Source: a phage
DNA: 64,000 bases
Reading direction: 5' to 3' (one strand)
Sequence record: PZ166176.1
Below, one piece after another: positions 1,240 to 8,288 of this stretch. Numbering within the stretch: the stretch's first letter is position 1; every line of letters starts with the position of its first letter. The notes below the pieces were generated by a model that saw only the letters and a list, made by a program, of their open reading frames with translations, was not told the DNA's origin and did no database searches. Position numbers and translations under genes: made by a program.

Positions 1240-1546
1240 CTTTAACCACCTCCAATTGTCTTTCGAGTTTGACCTTGTTTGAGAACTGATAATGACACAA
1301 CTTACATTGCATGTCAACAATCTGATAGTGATTTAACCCTACAATTTTAACTTCCTTTGCACCATCCCACTCCAAATACTCAAAGCCATCCAAATGATTA
1401 CTCTTGTCCAACAGGAATGCTATCTGCTGCCATTCAATCTGAATGTCATTTAAATGATATGCTGCACAGAAGATATCCTCATAGTAAAAGACGATCATTG
1501 TCATTGCTTCGTCCAGCACAACTACCTCTTGTCTTGTAAATCTCAT
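1223..1546 (-). CDS. hypothetical protein (107 aa), first gene of the leftward unit
   Basis: ORF with TAGGAGG RBS upstream of ATG; sits immediately left of the divergent control region. Confidence 0.55.
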   Translation of the reverse strand: MRFTRQEVVVLDEAMTMIVFYYEDIFCAAYHLNDIQIEWQQIAFLLDKSNHLDGFEYLEWDGAKEVKIVGLNHYQIVDMQCKLCHYQFSNKVKLERQLEVVKDDSTD

Positions 1547-1590
1547 TCTAGCCTCCTAAACGCGTCTCTGATGCACTTTTTATATATAAG

Positions 1591-1619
1591 ATGATAAATC
1601 ACCTTACCTAGTAAGTAAA
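1591..1619 (-). promoter_or_regulatory. sigma70-like promoter for the leftward genes (-35 TTTACT, 17-nt spacer, -10 TATCAT on the minus strand)
   Basis: Hexamers read directly on the reverse complement, correctly spaced and positioned upstream of the 1546 start. Confidence 0.4.
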
Positions 1620-1801
1620 CTTGCTCTACGAGCCTCTTATGAAGCTTATGTTATAGGCTATACTATTGCTACCTGTTTAAGCAAGGTTTTTGCACACAGA
1701 AAATAATTTTTAATAAAACTCTTGACTTTTGTGTTCGAAGTATGCTACCCTAGAAATCTATTAACGAGCGCAGCGAGTTAAGGTTTTAGGTTGTTGATGT
1801 A

Positions 1802-1833
1802 GTACTCTGTACTCAAGTACTGTACTCCGTACT
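1802..1833. repeat. array of five GTACT repeats within 32 bp
   Basis: GTACT at 1802, 1809, 1817, 1822 and 1829; further GTAC sites at 1888, 1907, 1911, 1989 and 1994 flank AT-rich tracts. Confidence 0.8.
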
Positions 1834-1835
1834 AG

Positions 1836-1882
1836 ATTAATAATTATTAAATATTAATAATAAATAATTATTAGATCTAACA
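1836..1882. repeat. AT-rich tract with internal palindromes (ttaataattattaa)
   Basis: Nearly pure A/T for about 45 bp between the GTAC clusters; a second AT-rich tract lies at 1921-1965 and a perfect 14-bp palindrome TGATCTATAGATCA at 1968-1981. Confidence 0.8.
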
Positions 1883-1966
1883 AACAGGTACAGTGTATCA
1901 GAACTGGTACGTACAGATCAACTTCTATCAATTAAAAATAAAATAATAAATTATTATAAATAATAC

Positions 1967-1995
1967 TTGATCTATAGATCAGTATGAAGTACAGT
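1967..1995 (+). promoter_or_regulatory. sigma70-like promoter for the rightward genes (-35 TTGATC, 17-nt spacer, -10 TACAGT), overlapping the palindrome TGATCTATAGATCA
   Basis: Hexamers and spacing read directly; AT-rich UP-like region upstream; the palindrome in the spacer looks like an operator. Confidence 0.4.
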
Positions 1996-2027
1996 ACGGA
2001 ACATCTTAACAAGAATGGAGGTGTGCA

Positions 2028-2213
2028 ATGATTAGCGAGAATCCGTGCAAATGGCATCATGTGCCTATTAAAGATTGTATGTCTTGTAATCCACGTTCTA
2101 TTTATAACATTGCATCTTATGATGATGACAATGTGTTAGACGATGATGAAGGCTGGGAGGATTTAGATTGGACTGGTTATGAAACCAAAAAGGATAAAAT
2201 TATTCCTAGTTGA
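2028..2213 (+). CDS. hypothetical acidic protein (61 aa)
   Basis: ORF with strong RBS (AATGGAGGTG) upstream of ATG; Asp/Glu-rich C-terminal half. Confidence 0.5.
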   Translation: MISENPCKWHHVPIKDCMSCNPRSIYNIASYDDDNVLDDDEGWEDLDWTGYETKKDKIIPS

Positions 2214-2286
2214 CTTAAGATATCCTTCGTGCTAAACTAGAAGTGAGGAGATGCCGATCACTCCCCATTTGGGGTTCGAAGGATAT

Positions 2287-2502
2287 ATGCAAAATAGCTT
2301 TTATTTTAGGTGCCGTGCTTGTAATAGGCATTTGACAAACCACTCCAGACGTGATAAAAATGGAGTCATCAAGGAATCAGACCTCTGTTCTATTTGCACA
2401 GGTTTGGCTTTTGATGATAGTCCCGAAAGGGTTTATCAGCATCAATGTATAACAGACGTTCTCGTGTCAAACTTGGTAGAGGACGAACAACTAACAGATT
2501 AG
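2287..2502 (+). CDS. hypothetical Cys-rich protein (possible zinc ribbon)
   Basis: Track ORF 2251-2502; start placed at the internal ATG after GAAGGA; CxxC...CxxC pattern (CRACNRH, CSIC). Confidence 0.4.
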   Translation: MQNSFYFRCRACNRHLTNHSRRDKNGVIKESDLCSICTGLAFDDSPERVYQHQCITDVLVSNLVEDEQLTD

Positions 2503-2510
2503 GAGGAACA

Positions 2511-2759
2511 ATGTCTCTATTAGAAAAACACGTGTTTGAAGATGGTAACGGCAATGCAGTTTTTCTTTTCCATCCAGAAAAATACACATCTGAAAACAAT
2601 GGTACAACTTCTATTGTAATCACTAAAGATGTTAAAGTTATTGATTTCTTGGCTCTGATGCGAGAGATGGATCTTGAAATTAATACTTTTAACGCAGAAG
2701 CTTTGGTTGTTGCTCTTCTGGAAAAGAAAGATAGTGAAGAAGTAGCAGAATATGCTTAA
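2511..2759 (+). CDS. hypothetical protein (82 aa)
   Basis: ATG at 2511 preceded by AGGAGG (2501-2506); the track ORF starting at 2445 is a longer in-frame artefact. Confidence 0.55.
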   Translation: MSLLEKHVFEDGNGNAVFLFHPEKYTSENNGTTSIVITKDVKVIDFLALMREMDLEINTFNAEALVVALLEKKDSEEVAEYA

Positions 2760-2766
2760 ATAACTA

Positions 2767-2796
2767 TTGACAAACGTATCCTTCATATGTTAGGAT
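2767..2796 (+). promoter_or_regulatory. promoter-like site (actattgacaa motif: -35 TTGACA, 18-nt spacer, -10 TAGGAT) with inverted repeat GTATCCT...AGGATAC
   Basis: Consensus -35 hexamer; weak -10; the 7-bp inverted-repeat arms at 2776-2782 and 2793-2799 overlap the -10 region. Confidence 0.4.
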
Positions 2797-3005
2797 ACGT
2801 TCATCAAGTGTGGTAACAGGGTCGTTGACTTTTGTTAAGAGGGGCTTGCACTGCGGTAGTGTTAGAGACTACTTCTTCAGAGGTTAGCTACCAAAGAGGA
2901 AAAGGAATAGTCTCGGCTCAAGAACTTTTACGCTGAAAGTTGGGCTTGGTCTTAGAGAATGTAGCGGTTCTCTACAATCGTCAGCGTCTCTGTTACCACA
3001 TTTAT

Positions 3006-3080
3006 GGCCCTGTAGCTCAATGGGAGAGCTGTCGGCTCATAACCGATAGGTAGCTGGATCGAAACCAGCCAGGGCCACCA
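3006..3080 (+). tRNA. tRNA with anticodon CAT (Met, or Ile2 if lysidine-modified), CCA encoded
   Basis: Cloverleaf folded by hand: acceptor GGCCCTG/CAGGGCC, D-stem GCTC/GAGC, anticodon loop CTCATAA, T-stem GCTGG/CCAGC, discriminator A, CCA. Confidence 0.8.
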
Positions 3081-3082
3081 AC

Positions 3083-3157
3083 GTCTTTATGGTGTAATGG
3101 ATAGCACAGGAGTCTTCTAAACTCTTAGTCAAGGTTCGATTCCTTGTAAAGACACCA
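3083..3157 (+). tRNA. tRNA-Arg (anticodon TCT), CCA encoded
   Basis: Acceptor GTCTTTA/TAAAGAC, anticodon stem GGAGT/ACTCT with loop CTTCTAA, T-stem CAAGG/CCTTG with loop TTCGATT, discriminator A, CCA. Confidence 0.8.
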
Positions 3158-3353
3158 GAACATTTTAACATGAATTAGCTCAAGTGATTTGAACCCACTA
3201 CTGATCATGGTGGCAGAGAATGAGGCAAGTATGTCAGACATTATAAACAAAGGCCACGGTTATATTAGAAGACATAAATGCTCGAAGAGCACCGTTCGTT
3301 GAGAACGGGGGTTGGTGGAGTCACCATTCATGGTAAAATGTTTTAAAAAACTA

Positions 3354-3383
3354 TTGACAACTAACATTATTTTATGTTAGATT
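3354..3383 (+). promoter_or_regulatory. promoter-like site (-35 TTGACA, 18-nt spacer, -10 TAGATT) with palindrome TAACAT...ATGTTA
   Basis: Same actattgacaa motif as at 2767 and 4103; lies just upstream of tRNA-Ser. Confidence 0.4.
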
Positions 3384-3391
3384 ATAAGTAT

Positions 3392-3482
3392 GGAAGGGCA
3401 AATCGACGTGGCGACGAAAACGGTCTTGAAAACCGCCGAGCTTGAAAGAGCCTTGGGAGTTCGACTCTCCCTCCTTCCGCCA
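3392..3482 (+). tRNA. tRNA-Ser (anticodon TGA), long variable arm, CCA encoded
   Basis: Acceptor GGAAGGG/TCCTTCC, anticodon loop CTTGAAA, long variable arm, T-stem GGGAG/CTCCC with loop TTCGACT, discriminator G, CCA; the D-arm is irregular. Confidence 0.7.
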
Positions 3483-3486
3483 GATT

Positions 3487-3572
3487 GGTAGATTGGTGAA
3501 ATGGTAGCCACGACAGTTTGCTAAACTGTAGTCGGAAACGGCGTGTAGGTTCGAGTCCTACATCTACCGCCA
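3487..3572 (+). tRNA. tRNA-Ser (anticodon GCT), long variable arm, CCA encoded
   Basis: Acceptor GGTAGAT/ATCTACC, D-stem GTGA/CCAC (read as in the analysis), anticodon stem ACAGT/ACTGT with loop TTGCTAA, T-stem GTAGG/CCTAC, discriminator G, CCA. Confidence 0.8.
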
Positions 3573-3578
3573 AATTAA

Positions 3579-3664
3579 GATGAGTTGGCTGAATGGTTTA
3601 AGCGGCGGACTGTTAATCCGTGTTCGAAAGAACGATATAGGTTCAAATCCTATACTCATCGCCA
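3579..3664 (+). tRNA. atypical tRNA: serine-like body (long variable arm, discriminator G) with anticodon GTT (Asn codons), CCA encoded
   Basis: Acceptor GATGAGT/ACTCATC (perfect), anticodon stem GCGGA/TCCGT with loop CTGTTAA, variable arm hairpin GTTC-GAAA-GAAC, T-stem ATAGG/CCTAT with loop TTCAAAT, discriminator G, CCA. Isotype cannot be settled by eye. Confidence 0.55.
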
Positions 3665-3671
3665 GAATTAT

Positions 3672-3750
3672 GGACTTGTAGAGTTAAGGTAAACCCCCAG
3701 TCGCCAAGAGGCTTCTGGAATTGCAGGTATCGAATCCTGCCGAGTCCCAG
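3672..3750 (+). pseudogene. degenerate tRNA-like element (no CCA, 8-nt T-loop, no clean anticodon arm)
   Basis: Acceptor GGACTTG/CGAGTCC and T-stem GCAGG/CCTGC are recognisable, but the D and anticodon arms do not fold canonically and CCA is absent. Confidence 0.3.
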
Positions 3751-3754
3751 CTTT

Positions 3755-3829
3755 GCTCCTATAGTATAATGGCTATTACAACGGTTTTGTAATCCGTGGA
3801 TCTCTGTTCGATTCAGAGTGGGAGCACCA
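3755..3829 (+). tRNA. tRNA-Thr (anticodon TGT), CCA encoded
   Basis: Acceptor GCTCCTA/TGGGAGC, anticodon loop TTTGTAA with a U-U loop-closing mismatch, T-stem CTCTG/CAGAG with loop TTCGATT, discriminator A, CCA. Confidence 0.75.
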
Positions 3830-4102
3830 ACACAACATTAAGAGCACTGTGATTGATCGTCGTATCCTGTGCACAAGGTCTGCTCGAAAGACAGTGTTCT
3901 TAGTATTGTGTTGATCACAAAAAGAGTTACCTGAAACTTGACCGGAGTAGGGTTGGATGGGGCAAAAGAAGAAGCGGCTCTCCCATCGACAGCAACGAAG
4001 AATAATATTTGACTTTGGTTTTGTATTATTTTAAGTTAGCTTACCGAACGTAGGGCTAGTCACCCAATGGGATACTCGTCACTGTCCCGCTCAATAAAAC
4101 TA

Positions 4103-4132
4103 TTGACAACCAATAGTAAAATGTAGTATAGT
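4103..4132 (+). promoter_or_regulatory. sigma70-like promoter (-35 TTGACA, 18-nt spacer, -10 TATAGT) with inverted repeat ACTATTG...CAATAGT
   Basis: Good match in both hexamers; lies upstream of tRNA-Gly and restarts transcription inside the tRNA region. Confidence 0.55.
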
Positions 4133-4143
4133 AAAGATGTAGG

Positions 4144-4217
4144 GCGTTCTTGGTGTAGCGGTAGCATTCCGTCCTTCCAAGTCGGCGGCACGAGTTCGAT
4201 CCTCGTAGAACGCTCCA
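4144..4217 (+). tRNA. tRNA-Gly (anticodon TCC), CCA encoded
   Basis: Acceptor GCGTTCT/AGAACGC (perfect), anticodon loop CTTCCAA, T-stem ACGAG/CTCGT with loop TTCGATC, discriminator T, CCA. Confidence 0.75.
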
Positions 4218-4315
4218 AATTATTTAATAAAGGGTTGCCAGAAAACTTTCTCTTTTACTCATGGTTTTCTCCTTCTCTCACACCTCTTCTGGTTGCCCTT
4301 CATTAAATGATTTAT

Positions 4316-4391
4316 TGGTTTGTAGTGTAGTCCGGTAGCACACGACACTTTGACTGTCGTAGGTTTGGTTCAAATCCAGACAGACCAGCCA
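4316..4391 (+). tRNA. tRNA-Gln (anticodon TTG), CCA encoded
   Basis: Acceptor TGGTTTG/CAGACCA, D-stem GTGT/ACAC region, anticodon stem CGACA/TGTCG with loop CTTTGAC, T-stem TTTGG/CCAGA with loop TTCAAAT, discriminator G, CCA. Confidence 0.75.
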
Positions 4392-4396
4392 TATAA

Positions 4397-4473
4397 CGGA
4401 ATTTAGCTCAGTTTGGTAGAGCATACGCTTTGGGAGCGTAGGGTCGCAGGTTCGAATCCTGCAATTCCGACCA
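4397..4473 (+). tRNA. tRNA-Pro (anticodon TGG), CCA encoded
   Basis: Acceptor CGGAATT/AATTCCG (perfect), anticodon stem TACGC/GCGTA with loop TTTGGGA, T-stem GCAGG/CCTGC with loop TTCGAAT, discriminator A, CCA. Confidence 0.85.
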
Positions 4474-4479
4474 ATCAAA

Positions 4480-4553
4480 TGTTTCGTAGTTCAATGGTAG
4501 AACCCACGACTGATAATCGTGAGACACAAGTTCGATTCTTGTCGAAACAACCA
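4480..4553 (+). tRNA. tRNA-Ile (anticodon GAT), CCA encoded
   Basis: Acceptor TGTTTCG/CGAAACA, D-stem GTTC/GAAC, anticodon stem CACGA/TCGTG with loop CTGATAA, T-stem ACAAG/CTTGT with loop TTCGATT, discriminator A, CCA. Confidence 0.85.
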
Positions 4554-4555
4554 GT

Positions 4556-4625
4556 TTCCCGTTAGACTTACAGGATAAGAGTTCCACAGCTTATTGTGAT
4601 GTTGGTTCGAATCCAGCACGGGATA
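4556..4625 (+). pseudogene. degenerate tRNA-like element (no CCA, irregular anticodon arm)
   Basis: T-arm GTTGG-TTCGAAT-CCAGC and an acceptor pairing with a 1:72 mismatch are present, but the anticodon region gives only a 4-bp stem with a 6-nt loop and ACA replaces CCA. Confidence 0.3.
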
Positions 4626-4631
4626 CATAAT

Positions 4632-4710
4632 AGCGGGATAGAGGAGTCTGGTCGTCCTCGCCAGTTTCATATGCTGGAGATCATCGGTTCAAATCCGATT
4701 CCCGCCTCCA
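4632..4710 (+). tRNA. tRNA with anticodon CAT and an A1:C72 mismatch (second Met/Ile2-type tRNA), CCA encoded
   Basis: Acceptor AGCGGGA/TCCCGCC, D-stem GAGG/CCTC with an 11-nt loop, anticodon stem CCAGT/GCTGG with loop TTCATAT, T-stem ATCGG/CCGAT with loop TTCAAAT, discriminator T, CCA. Confidence 0.65.
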
Positions 4711-4825
4711 AATATCGCTTGCCAGCGGTATCTTTGAAGACCTTGCCTGGTTCCTTCTAAGATGGAGGGGTGCGACTCCTTAACGCACAATTATAATAAA
4801 GCATTTCAAATTAACAGTATTTATT

Positions 4826-4848
4826 AGCCTCCTTATTGGAGGCTTTTT
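4826..4848 (+). terminator. rho-independent terminator after the tRNA cluster
   Basis: Hairpin AGCCTCC-TTATT-GGAGGCT followed by TTTT. Confidence 0.75.
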
Positions 4849-4867
4849 GCTATCTATTGAATAAAAC

Positions 4868-4896
4868 TTGACTTATTATTTTTTATATGTTAAGAT
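4868..4896 (+). promoter_or_regulatory. sigma70-like promoter (-35 TTGACT, 17-nt spacer, -10 TAAGAT)
   Basis: Hexamers read directly; followed by AGGAGG and the ATG at 4918. Confidence 0.5.
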
Positions 4897-4917
4897 AAAG
4901 TTTAGGAGGATTTTATT

Positions 4918-5214
4918 ATGCCTAAACTAAAACGTGGTCGTGGAAGACCAACAGCCGAAATGCAACAGATCTACGCAATGGATGCGGCGCAAGCAAGTGT
5001 AAAAGAATTATTTGCAGAGCATTATTTAGAAGCTATGCGATATATTGTTGAACTTGTTAATGATAAGGATGCAGCAAAACCTCTCCGCTTCCAAGCAGCT
5101 AAAGCTATTAAAGAGCAAGTAGAAGAATGGTTAGAAGAACATTATGAAGCTATGGAAGAAGAAACCCCTGCCGTGCAGAATACAGATGACGTTCCTAAAA
5201 AGATCGTAATCTAA
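4918..5214 (+). CDS. hypothetical protein with AT-hook-like KRGRGRP motif (98 aa); small terminase subunit possible
   Basis: Strong RBS; own promoter and two downstream terminators; N-terminal PKLKRGRGRPT motif suggests DNA binding; lies upstream of the large terminase. Confidence 0.5.
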   Translation: MPKLKRGRGRPTAEMQQIYAMDAAQASVKELFAEHYLEAMRYIVELVNDKDAAKPLRFQAAKAIKEQVEEWLEEHYEAMEEETPAVQNTDDVPKKIVI

Positions 5215-5229
5215 TCCCTCTCCTCTCTT

Positions 5230-5260
5230 GGGGCTTTGCCCCTCCTCCTTGTTATTTTTA
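5230..5260 (+). terminator. terminator hairpin GGGGC-TTT-GCCCC followed by a T-rich tract
   Basis: Read directly after the stop codon at 5214. Confidence 0.55.
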
Positions 5261-5263
5261 ACA

Positions 5264-5298
5264 CCCCTCTCCGAAAGGTTAGGGGCTTTTTTATTTTT
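5264..5298 (+). terminator. rho-independent terminator (stem CCCCT...AGGGG followed by CTTTTTTATTTTT)
   Basis: GC stem followed by a long T-run; second of two tandem terminators. Confidence 0.75.
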
Positions 5299-5303
5299 AA
5301 TGC

Positions 5304-5333
5304 TTGCAATTGTATATCATTTTGTGATAAGAT
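5304..5333 (+). promoter_or_regulatory. sigma70-like promoter (-35 TTGCAA, 18-nt spacer, -10 TAAGAT)
   Basis: Same -10 hexamer as the promoter at 4868; followed by GAGGAGGA and the ATG at 5355. Confidence 0.45.
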
Positions 5334-5354
5334 CAGATATGAGGAGGATAAAAT

Positions 5355-5525
5355 ATGCGCAATTTTGTAGTTAAAAATGATTTTAACCGTTCTTCTTATC
5401 ATAAAGATAAAAAGAATGATTACACACGGGTTTGGAACTTGGAGGAAGAACTTTATGATGACAGAGAAGACTTGGAAAGAGATCCTAGCGGAGGCTCAAC
5501 CAATGGAAGTGAAGAAGATAGTTAA
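5355..5525 (+). CDS. small acidic hypothetical protein (56 aa)
   Basis: ATG at 5355 six nt after GAGGAGGA; not in the track (below 60 aa). Track ORF 5377-5592 in another frame is the alternative. Confidence 0.3.
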   Translation: MRNFVVKNDFNRSSYHKDKKNDYTRVWNLEEELYDDREDLERDPSGGSTNGSEEDS

Positions 5526-6212: not shown

Positions 6213-8288
6213 GTGGCAAAGAAAAAGGCAGCAGGTAGTTTAGCTGGAGTAGATATTGAAGTAAAGGCTCAACCAGGTAAACAGACTCTTGCAATGGATT
6301 TAATGCCAGAAGTTATGATTTATGGTGGTGCCGCTGGATGTGTTTCTGCTGAAACAGAATATCTTACAAAAGATGGTTGGAGACAGATTAGTGAATATTC
6401 TGGAGAGGATATTTACCAATACAATCCTAAGAATAAGCGTTTAGAATTGGTAACACCTTATTTTGTAGAATACGATTTAAATGGAGATAACCTATACAGA
6501 ATAACAAATGGTGTAGGATTGTTCCAAGAACTTAGTATGGAACACCGTTTTGTATTCTATAAGAAAAAGAAATCAAAGAAACATTTCGAGATTCTTGTAG
6601 GAGATCTTATTGCATTACAGCAAATAGGAAAACCCCTGCAAGGTTATGTAGAAAATCCATTCGGTAAACGTGTTCCTTTTAACATACCTGGTAAAAAGAG
6701 CACTTACTTAAAAATACACGAGGTTATTTCAACAGATGATAAGAAATATTGTTTTGAGACTCCAAGCAGCTATATTGTCTTTAGACGTGGCGATCACTGC
6801 TTCGTTACTGGGAATAGCGGCAAGTCTCGTCTGCTATTGCTGAAAGCTTTAAAATACGCCTACAAAGACCCTTTGTTTGGTGGAATACTTTTCCGTAAGA
6901 ACACCACTGCTCACCGTAAACCAGGTGGTCTGTTTACAGAAGCAAAACGTTTGTATCTTCCTTTACAACCGCACGTAAAAGAAAGTACAATGGATATCAT
7001 TTTTGAAGCCACTGGTGGTGGAACCCTCAAATTTGACCATTTGGAAAATGATAACGTAACAGCAGAAACAAACCATCAGGGTACACAGTATTCAATGGTA
7101 GGTTTTGACGAGTTAACCCACTTCACACAATATGAAATGCTCTATCTTCTGGGACGTATGCGTTCAGAGTCAGAAACAAGTTTCATGTTGTGCACATGTA
7201 ACCCTGACGCAGATAGTTGGGTTTTGAATTGGGTGTTACCTTATCTTGATGAGGGTGGTTATCCTAGAGAAGATATGTGTGGTAAACAAAAATATTTCAT
7301 CATTGTTAACGATGAACCTGTTTTTGCTGACACACCTGAAGAACTGAAAGAAAAATATCCAGAAAACTGTTTCATGGAAAACCCTAATACAGGGGAGACA
7401 GTTGTTATTGAACCACAAACTTTCGTATTTATTGGTGGGACAATATTTGATAACCCAGAACTCATTAGGCTTAACCCTAATTACTTAGCACAGCTTAAAT
7501 CACAAACAGCGATTAAAAGAGCACAGCTTCTGGACGGTTGTTGGTTTGCACGTATTCAGAAAGAATCTTTCTTTCAACGTGAATGGTTACATAAAATATC
7601 TTATAAAGATGTTCCTAACAATCTTAAACTAATGCGAGCATGGGATAAAGCTGTTTCAGTTCCTACAGAAACTTACCGTTATCCAGACTATACAACATCT
7701 GTCAAAATGGGTAAAGACCAAGATGGTAATATCTACATCTTTGGCGACTATGATTATGATGCTGTGGATGAGAAAAGTAAAATTTTCGGAAGGTTTCGAA
7801 GACTACCTGGGGAAAGGGATAACCTGATTCTAAATCAATGTAAGATTGATGGACCAGAAGTTACAGTAGTGCTTCCTAAAGACCCATCTGGTGCTGGGAC
7901 AATAGAATACACAGAGTCTGCAAAGAAACTTATTCTAGAAGGTTTTGTTGTTAAACCAGATGCTATGCCAGGTAACAAGAAAAAGCTTCAGCGTTTTATG
8001 CCTTTTAGTAGTGCGTGTCAAAACGGTTTTGTTTATATTGTTGAAGATTCTTTCCCTAATGTGGAAACTTTAACCCACTTTTATAAAGAATTGGAATCTT
8101 TCAATGGTGAAAGATCTACAGCCACTATTAAAGATGACATTCCCGATGCTGCTGCCTCTTGTTTTAATACTCTGTCAAAAGAGAATACTTTCAAAGCAGT
8201 AGCTATCCCTACAACAACAAATGCTCCTACAGGATACAGTAGAATGAACAGCGGATTTCACCAACCGTATAGTGTCCGTAAAAGATAA
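6213..8288 (+). CDS. terL: terminase large subunit, interrupted by an intein in the Walker A P-loop
   Basis: Walker A (GGAAG...SGKS) is split by an inserted segment; Walker B-like MVGFDELTHF; size and position upstream of the portal gene. Confidence 0.85.
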   Translation: MAKKKAAGSLAGVDIEVKAQPGKQTLAMDLMPEVMIYGGAAGCVSAETEYLTKDGWRQISEYSGEDIYQYNPKNKRLELVTPYFVEYDLNGDNLYRITNGVGLFQELSMEHRFVFYKKKKSKKHFEILVGDLIALQQIGKPLQGYVENPFGKRVPFNIPGKKSTYLKIHEVISTDDKKYCFETPSSYIVFRRGDHCFVTGNSGKSRLLLLKALKYAYKDPLFGGILFRKNTTAHRKPGGLFTEAKRLYLPLQPHVKESTMDIIFEATGGGTLKFDHLENDNVTAETNHQGTQYSMVGFDELTHFTQYEMLYLLGRMRSESETSFMLCTCNPDADSWVLNWVLPYLDEGGYPREDMCGKQKYFIIVNDEPVFADTPEELKEKYPENCFMENPNTGETVVIEPQTFVFIGGTIFDNPELIRLNPNYLAQLKSQTAIKRAQLLDGCWFARIQKESFFQREWLHKISYKDVPNNLKLMRAWDKAVSVPTETYRYPDYTTSVKMGKDQDGNIYIFGDYDYDAVDEKSKIFGRFRRLPGERDNLILNQCKIDGPEVTVVLPKDPSGAGTIEYTESAKKLILEGFVVKPDAMPGNKKKLQRFMPFSSACQNGFVYIVEDSFPNVETLTHFYKELESFNGERSTATIKDDIPDAAASCFNTLSKENTFKAVAIPTTTNAPTGYSRMNSGFHQPYSVRKR
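6339..6815 (+). mobile_element. mini-intein (about 159 aa) in the terminase P-loop
   Basis: Begins CVSAETEYLTKDGW directly after GGAAG and ends ...DHCFVTGN before SGKS; excision would restore the P-loop GGAAGSGKS. Confidence 0.6.

Follow-up and report, generated by a model that had tools for sequence, protein, structure and literature searches.

Putative internal promoters and promoter-embedded hairpins in the tRNA region of a phAPEC8-like coliphage

The tRNA region and its three putative promoters

The DNA analysed here, referred to as the window, is a stretch of 64,000 nucleotides (nt) from the phage sequence record PZ166176.1, and the elements in question are three putative promoters (P1, P2 and P3) of its tRNA region together with the inverted repeats embedded in them. 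Between positions 1500 and 5400 the window shares 99.6% identity with Escherichia phage ECO340P2 and 98.6% with phAPEC8, and it represents a phAPEC8-like coliphage of the genus Phapecoctavirus (Stephanstirmvirinae), a group of coliphage myoviruses of 150 kb. Two gene arms diverge at this locus, with leftward genes stopping at 1546 and rightward genes starting at 2028. The rightward arm contains three small open reading frames (ORFs), ten called tRNAs (3006-4710), further small ORFs and the large terminase gene at 6213. The ~40 kb downstream of the tRNA region contain + strand genes only and no evident antisense promoter. The divergent intergenic region (1547-2027) contains an AT-rich block of palindromes and repeats at 1835-1965, which is a possible replication origin or regulatory region.

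The original prediction had described three promoter-like sites at 2767, 3354 and 4103, positions that correspond to the first T of each TTGACA, and had interpreted them as a co-regulated family with a shared extended -35 sequence, an inverted repeat at each site and operators for a phage transcription factor acting on tRNA and small-RNA expression. All three sites combine a perfect TTGACA, an 18-nt spacer and a TAnnnT -10 hexamer (TAGGAT at 2791-2796, TAGATT at 3378-3383 and TATAGT at 4127-4132), which together match the sigma-70 consensus at 10-11 of 12 positions. P1 and P2, but not P3, have an extended -10 element (TGn), and all three are preceded by an A-rich tract, matching the preference for A at -45 to -40 among 54 other promoter-like sites. 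The promoters and the sequence that they share are located as follows:

2753-2803, + strand: promoter P1, with an A/T-rich tract, -35 hexamer at 2767-2772, TG at 2788-2789 and -10 hexamer at 2791-2796; predicted start at about 2803
2762-2773, + strand: first copy of AACTATTGACAA, including the P1 -35 hexamer (2767-2772)
3340-3390, + strand: promoter P2, with an A-tract at 3343-3349, -35 hexamer at 3354-3359, TG and -10 hexamer at 3378-3383; predicted start at about 3390
3349-3360, + strand: second copy of AACTATTGACAA, including the P2 -35 hexamer (3354-3359)
4092-4139, + strand: promoter P3, with an A-rich tract, -35 hexamer at 4103-4108 and -10 hexamer at 4127-4132; predicted start at about 4139, 5 nt before tRNA-Gly
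4098-4109, + strand: third copy of AACTATTGACAA, including the P3 -35 hexamer (4103-4108)

The extended -35 motif was borne out by three exact copies of the 11-mer ACTATTGACAA at 2763, 3350 and 4099, all on the + strand and the only ones in the window. The identity is even 1 nt longer than proposed, extending to the 12-mer AACTATTGACAA (from 2762, 3349 and 4098). In a wider search, the 11-mer was not found in another 80 kb of the same genome type (phAPEC8 1-50000 and 118000-147737). Calculated from the base frequencies at the 54 other promoter-like sites of the genome type, a match of two further promoters to the first at all six non-hexamer positions has a probability of ~7e-7, so that on these frequencies the sharing of the 12-mer is real and exceeds the general promoter consensus of the phage. 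The shorter motif ACTATTG was considered as a signal and rejected, since it occurs at background frequency (10 + 10 copies) and is special only as part of the full 11- or 12-mer. In the sister lineage phiWec179, the four bases 5' of TTGACA are AGTA and GGTG instead of ACTA.

The distance from the end of the -10 hexamer to the first base of a folded RNA is 10 nt at P1 (closing stem of the structured RNA nc1, 2806), 9 nt at P2 (a tRNA-Ser-like RNA, 3392) and 12 nt at P3 (tRNA-Gly, 4144); with this spacing of 9-12 nt, the predicted primary transcripts would begin 2-5 nt from the mature 5' ends. Orthologous promoters precede the same tRNAs in phiWec179, phi92, Klebsiella phage phi1_175008 and several metagenomic relatives, and among them the hexamers are kept while the spacers have diverged. 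The records of phAPEC8, Mt1B1_P17 and ESCO13 lack annotations for all three sites, although phAPEC8 bears promoter features elsewhere. Judged by these sequence features, P1-P3 are very probably promoters of the host sigma-70 type. Their function as promoters is a strong inference rather than a demonstration, and we likewise infer initiation at these sites. A further promoter-like site (TTGACT, 17-nt spacer, TAAGTT) lies at 4009-4037 within the non-coding segment nc3; it contains neither the 12-mer nor a significant fold.

Inverted repeats, their conservation and strand bias

An inverted repeat is present at each of the three promoters, as originally noted. The P1 repeat is longer than first described and pairs AACGTATCCT (2773-2782) perfectly over 10 bp with AGGATACGTT (2792-2801) across a loop of 9 nt. 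Its 3' arm spans promoter positions -11 to -2, and an outer helix can form between TTGA (2767-2770) and TCAA (2804-2807). The P2 repeat consists of CTAACAT (3361-3367) and ATGTTAG (3374-3380; 7 bp, loop of 6), and the P3 repeat of ACTATTG (4099-4105) and CAATAGT (4111-4117; 7 bp, loop of 5, ACAAC), with the TTG of the -35 hexamer contained in the stem. Significance was assessed against dinucleotide-preserving shuffles of each 50-nt segment, with the following values for the repeats and RNA folds of P1 and P3:

2773-2801, + strand: P1 hairpin; p=0.0004, -16 kcal/mol, z -5.4; kept in phiWec179
4099-4117, + strand: P3 hairpin; p=0.019, -6 kcal/mol, z -1.2; covariation in orthologues

The P2 repeat reaches p=0.11 with a fold of -7 kcal/mol (z -2.1, spanning -2.1 to -1.6), and among 50-nt windows of 30% G+C or less, about 10% contain a 7-bp repeat. 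Hence the P1 repeat is clearly non-random, the P3 repeat is marginal when taken alone, and the P2 repeat is within chance for AT-rich sequence. Furthermore, phiWec179, phi92 and the loci L019-L021 and L024 lack the P2 repeat in their orthologous promoters, and we judge it to be a chance feature of an AT-rich spacer. The arms AACGTATCCT, CTAACAT and ACTATTG are unrelated, the loops measure 9, 6 and 5 nt and the repeats occupy differing positions within the promoter; no common half-site is apparent. On the sense strand the hairpins are followed by CATCAAG (P1) and AAAATGT (P3), neither of which is a U-tract, so the two hairpins do not qualify as intrinsic terminators.

Relatives for comparison came from a search of viral contigs for the exact pattern adjoining P1 (1 contig), a terminase search (8 loci) and a metagenome scan (20 loci). 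In phiWec179, the P1 arms are AGCGTGTCTT and AAGATACGCT, in which all 10 pairs are kept and none is broken. Relative to the window, two changes are compensatory (A-T to G-C and C-G to T-A) and one pair is G.T, and the hairpin folds with -17.4 kcal/mol (z -5.6). At L004 296, the phi92 promoter shares the hairpin geometry of P1, with the arms GGGAGTAT and ATACTCCC. The tRNA-Met promoters of two metagenomic relatives (L020 937 and L021 2131) contain another 10-bp hairpin, ATGCCTACCT / AGGTAGGCAT, in which the spacer is paired with the -10 hexamer and discriminator. These hairpins are shifted by a few bases in register relative to P1 and are thus analogous rather than homologous pair by pair, which renders a column-wise covariation analysis of P1 against them invalid. 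Fold z values in relatives include -4.2 (L020) and -3.2 (L019).

The P3 hairpin, with the general form nnnnTTG [ACAA(C)] CAAnnnn, persists in seven distinct orthologous sequences in which the four outer pairs covary (A-T/C-G; T-A/G.T/C-G/A-T/G-C; C-G/T-A; A-T/G-C). Since MAFFT alignments of the hairpins set homologous pairs out of register, covariation was evaluated on an ungapped alignment of 20 nt, for which one loop base was taken out of the window sequence. In this alignment, 91% of cells are paired as opposed to 79% in shuffles, and the covariation score is 0.536 compared with 0.284 in shuffles. None of 500 shuffles reached 0.536, and controls with the alignment slid out of place scored 0.05-0.23. 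That the arms drift while the pairing stays, and that no repeat sequence is shared, argues against a common operator and for RNA hairpins of the sense strand.

The imperfect pairs point to the same strand. In the P3 set, they comprise four G.T and one A.C on the sense strand, and additional sense-strand G.T pairs occur in the phiWec179 P1 hairpin, at L021 2131, in the phi92 Gly promoter and at L019 1414. When 24 hairpin promoters were folded on both strands, the sense fold was the more stable in 18 and the antisense fold in three, with a mean difference (sense minus antisense) of -2.9 kcal/mol (Wilcoxon p=3e-4), compared with -0.3 in 50 control promoters. The sense-strand G.T pairs and the more stable sense folds suggest base pairing in sense-strand RNA. 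As both arms lie 5' of the predicted start, such a hairpin would exist as RNA only in read-through transcripts begun further upstream.

Across the subfamily, the promoters of the tRNA region have a mean z of -2.29, with 48% at or below -2 (n=31), compared with -0.24 for early promoters (n=14) and -0.01 for other promoters (n=34, 0 at or below -2; Mann-Whitney p=7e-7), a comparison that includes orthologues and thus sequences that are not independent. Perfect repeats were rejected as a genome-wide promoter rule, since only two of 43 promoter-like sites of the phAPEC8-type genome have a significant one; the pattern stands for the tRNA region. At the genome ends of phAPEC8 (L005 1-5200 and L006 25000-29738), 12 of 14 early promoters have a stable G+C-rich hairpin (-11 to -17 kcal/mol), most often GGCGGCAATGGTGCCGCC, just past the predicted start, and one of the two exceptions has a 9-bp repeat over the -10 hexamer instead. 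In GenBank, 'PHIRE promoters' are annotated at the hairpin sites. Conserved hairpins at the 5' ends of the RNAs appear to be the better description, with transcript stabilisation or nut-like activity as possible roles.

A related arrangement was identified at the promoter-like site at 2210, whose spacer segment ATATCCTTCG (2220-2229) is perfectly complementary over 10 nt to CGAAGGATAT (2277-2286), and the latter arm covers the ribosome-binding site of the ORF starting with ATG at 2287. Because the 5' arm lies in the promoter spacer, this pairing is possible only in read-through RNA, and the ribosome-binding site could be masked only in transcripts from an upstream promoter. The core of the pairing is kept in phiWec179 and phi92-like phages.

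Proposed transcription units and structured RNAs of the cluster

The RNAs downstream of P1-P3 and the terminator that closes the tRNA unit are arranged as follows:

2806-3004, + strand: nc1, the presumed first P1 product; about 195 nt, multi-branched, with a 23-bp closing stem and four inner hairpins
3006-3080 and 3083-3157, + strand: tRNA-Met(CAT) and tRNA-Arg(TCT), which follow nc1
3158-3343, + strand: nc2, with a long closing stem ending 10 nt before the P2 -35 hexamer; -53.9 kcal/mol, z -4.1
3392-3829, + strand: presumed P2 products, comprising a tRNA-Ser(UGA)-like RNA (3392-3481), tRNA-Ser(GCT), tRNA-Asn, an uncalled tRNA-sized segment (3665-3754) and tRNA-Thr
3830-4092, + strand: nc3, non-coding, with a strong 5' hairpin (3830-3911)
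4144-4710, + strand: presumed P3 products, comprising tRNA-Gly, Gln, Pro, Ile and Met, with uncalled segments in between
4826-4851 (4826-4844 in the terminator scan), + strand: intrinsic terminator, AGCCTCC/GGAGGCT followed by a T run

A scan of the + strand from 1722 to 4851 found a single convincing terminator, the one at 4826-4844, and with this lone terminator read-through transcription across P1-P3 is expected. We consider such read-through plausible, given that there is no convincing + strand terminator between 1722 and 4826.

The non-coding RNA nc1 folds with -76.8 kcal/mol (z -5.6). In a comparison of three sequences, compensatory changes affect 12 of its 73 pairs. A scan of 1500-5400 against Rfam at E<=1 returned tRNAs and sub-threshold noise only, with no match for nc1. 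The analysis thus brings to light at least one covariation-supported non-coding RNA without an Rfam family. In L020 and L021 nc1 is absent and the promoter adjoins the tRNA directly. The final ~45 nt of nc3 (4044-4090) remain conserved in relatives whose terminase identity is as low as 61-70%. The tRNA-Ser(UGA)-like RNA at 3392-3481 has an unusual D arm, is not called by ARAGORN and scores 37.4 bits against the Rfam tRNA-Sec model (threshold 47). This variant is conserved in L019 and L021, while other lineages carry a standard tRNA-Ser(TGA) at this place.

Several further features of the cluster were observed. A tRNA-Tyr segment of ~210 bp, located between tRNA-Ser and tRNA-Asn in phAPEC8 (L001 5063-5281), is missing from the window at 3572-3579. 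The gaps inside the cluster at 3665-3754, 4218-4315, 4554-4631 and 4711-4800 are tRNA-sized or shorter and were called by no tool, and a stretch of ~70 nt beyond the last tRNA (about 4720-4790) shows 80-95% conservation in all lineages examined. Metagenomic relatives encode a tRNA with the anticodon CTA, which reads the amber codon and is labelled 'Pyl' by ARAGORN (L019 1008-1082, L020 2948-3022 and L021 3045-3119).

Interpretation and comparison with known systems

On balance, we consider it reasonably probable that P1-P3 are internal promoters of the host type, that the P1 and P3 repeats act as sense-strand RNA hairpins with a protective or insulating role, and that the P2 repeat is due to chance. 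In this explanation, P1-P3 would be strong promoters read by the host sigma-70 RNA polymerase inside one long transcription unit, which would begin at the promoters near 1722 and 2210 and end at the 4826 terminator. At each of P1-P3, transcription would be restarted 2-5 nt before a folded RNA, P1 serving nc1, tRNA-Met and tRNA-Arg, P2 the Ser/Ser/Asn/Thr block and P3 the block from Gly to Met. The hairpins would form only in transcripts that read through from upstream. The spacer, as the sole promoter part that can evolve freely, would be kept complementary to a fixed neighbour, which at P1 would be the -10 hexamer with the discriminator and at P3 the bases just 5' of the -35 hexamer plus its TTG. 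Once the downstream tRNA is excised, the hairpin could serve as a 3' cap for the mRNA or non-coding RNA upstream, and it could also keep the AU-rich promoter copy from upsetting the folding of neighbouring RNAs. That the P1 and P3 repeats are RNA hairpins rather than operators appears likely from the sequence comparisons; their specific protective or insulating role is suggested by analogy and remains a tentative proposal.

The co-regulated promoter family of the original prediction is retained as a family of promoters before tRNAs and structured RNAs, with consensus -35 hexamers and spacing, TG at two sites, A-rich tracts and conserved hexamers. Its second part, in which a dimeric transcription factor of the phage or host would bind the repeats as operators and co-regulate P1-P3, appears very unlikely. 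Repeats lying over the spacer, -10 or -35 have the classical geometry of operators, and both the exact 12-mer beyond the general promoter consensus and the perfect 10-bp repeat of P1 would fit such a reading. However, the three repeats share no half-site, their loops and positions differ, their arms vary between lineages by compensatory change with G.T tolerated on one strand, the P2 repeat is lost in orthologues and the ACTA 5' of the -35 hexamer becomes AGTA and GGTG in phiWec179. Furthermore, the five small ORFs beside the cluster, the only ones scanned, matched no family of known function in Pfam or PHROGs, DNA-binding or otherwise. Chance alone, with the repeats as accidents of AT-rich promoters in which TTGACAA is partly self-complementary (TTG/CAA), is distinctly unlikely as a general explanation. 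It would account for P2, and it agrees with the frequency of 7-bp repeats in AT-rich windows and with the rarity of significant perfect repeats among the 43 promoter-like sites, but on the comparative data it is refuted for P1, where a p of 0.0004 is accompanied by compensatory conservation, and for P3, where covariation keeps the hairpin in seven distinct sequences; in addition, the tRNA-region promoters are far more structured as a class than others.

A role at the DNA level is also unlikely. Here, cruciforms or single-strand hairpins in supercoiled or transcribed DNA would tune the promoter, as a supercoiling switch or as the target of a structure-specific protein. The hairpins always overlap core elements (the spacer with -10 and discriminator; upstream bases and TTG with the spacer; the -35 with the region past the -10), pairing rather than sequence is conserved and the enrichment is confined to one promoter class, all of which such a role would explain. 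Nevertheless, stems of 7-10 bp with loops of 4-9 nt are, from general knowledge of cruciform energetics, poor candidates for extrusion, and the strand asymmetry, with each sense G.T becoming A.C on the opposite strand and sense folds 2.9 kcal/mol more stable, fits one transcribed strand. It is very improbable that the hairpins and A-tracts are intrinsic terminators of antisense transcription which shield the tRNA genes from convergent polymerases. Several - strand hairpins are indeed followed by T-rich sequence, for example at P3 (ACTATTG..CAATAGT TTTATTG) and at L007 398 (AAGGGGTT..AACCCCTT, then TTTAAAAC), but in 18 of 24 cases the antisense fold is the weaker one, as sense G.U pairs turn into A.C, hairpins of the P1 type lack a T run on either strand, and the ~40 kb of exclusively + strand genes downstream offers no evident antisense promoter. 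RNase III sites were rejected because the stems are too short. Promoters of the N4 type, in which a hairpin is itself recognised, were likewise rejected on account of the loops of 4-9 nt, the variable stems and the full sigma-70 hexamers; no RNA polymerase gene was present among the annotated features of the phAPEC8 stretches examined.

Several observations weigh against the explanation by sense-strand RNA hairpins in host-type promoters. The exact identity of the 12-mer among the three promoters is unexplained by it. The hairpins overlap core promoter elements every time, which a role in RNA alone does not require and which could point to a function at the DNA or promoter level. The P3 hairpin of the window itself is weak, so that the case for it lies with its orthologues; the L020 and L021 hairpins correspond to P1 by analogy only; and the class comparison of fold z values includes orthologues, which are not independent. 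In addition, the literature searched on phAPEC8-like phages offers generic in-silico promoter predictions only, with no start-site, 3'-end or transcriptome data. A function at the promoter level, or a factor specific to this lineage, would be compatible with the constant overlap and the lineage-specific 12-mer. Recognition of the 12-mer itself by a factor is conceivable, though phiWec179 differs 5' of TTGACA. It would be rather unlikely that the promoter-embedded hairpins are a device of the subfamily which couples read-through to the use of internal promoters or sets processing boundaries, with the 12-mer marking the promoters for a common factor. If this were true, the hairpin in a passing transcript, or a protein recognising its structure, could for example decide whether a tRNA block comes from a precursor or from its own promoter during infection.

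The analysis identifies three probable, unannotated promoters in coliphages that are widely isolated as candidates for therapy, and indicates the likely organisation of their tRNA and small-RNA cluster into sub-units. It also illustrates that an inverted repeat over a promoter need not be an operator, as the comparative data here favour RNA structure. Should the overlap have a function of its own, it would represent a compact coding of an RNA element in a promoter spacer, of interest for phage regulation and synthetic design.

Compared with known systems, P1-P3 are promoters of an ordinary kind, and a modest variation lies in their conserved overlap with hairpins. Palindromic operators such as lambda OR/OL, LexA boxes and those of P22 Arc/Mnt also have repeats over the -35, spacer or -10; the operators of one regulator share a conserved sequence, whereas the repeats here are unrelated and evolve by compensatory change. 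The promoters of the N4 virion RNA polymerase resemble P1-P3 in having a hairpin-forming repeat within a phage promoter. They differ in their short stems, 3-nt loops, conserved bases and dedicated polymerase, in contrast to the loops of 4-9 nt, the variable sequence and the sigma-70 hexamers found here. Strong sigma-70 promoters of E. coli (rRNA and tRNA operons) and the early promoters of T4 and T5 are alike in TTGACA, TAnnnT at 18 bp, an A-rich tract at about -45 to -40, TG at -15/-14 in two of the three sites, placement before stable-RNA genes and the presumed use of unmodified host polymerase. In contrast to these, the -10 hexamers here match at only four to five of six positions, the spacers are 18 bp instead of the optimal 17, six additional bases are identical and the starts are predicted only.

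The tRNA cluster of T4 contains two interleaved stable RNAs that are not tRNAs (species 1 and 2, RNA C and D), is transcribed as multi-gene precursors from more than one promoter and depends on host enzymes for maturation. It is likened to the present locus, from general knowledge and with no sequence relation, as a tRNA cluster with interleaved structured RNAs, although in the window each of three internal promoters adjoins a folded RNA. To our knowledge, promoter-embedded hairpins have not been described for T4. The protective stem-loops of operons, such as the repetitive extragenic palindromic (REP) elements that stabilise 3' ends and the ompA 5' hairpin, are similar in lying on the sense strand without a U-tract, between units of a read-through transcript, and in the conservation of structure over sequence, and an analogous hairpin lies just past the start in early promoters of the same phage type. 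In the tRNA region, where protection is a proposed function, the hairpin differs from these in being built from the spacer of the next promoter together with its -10 or -35 flank.

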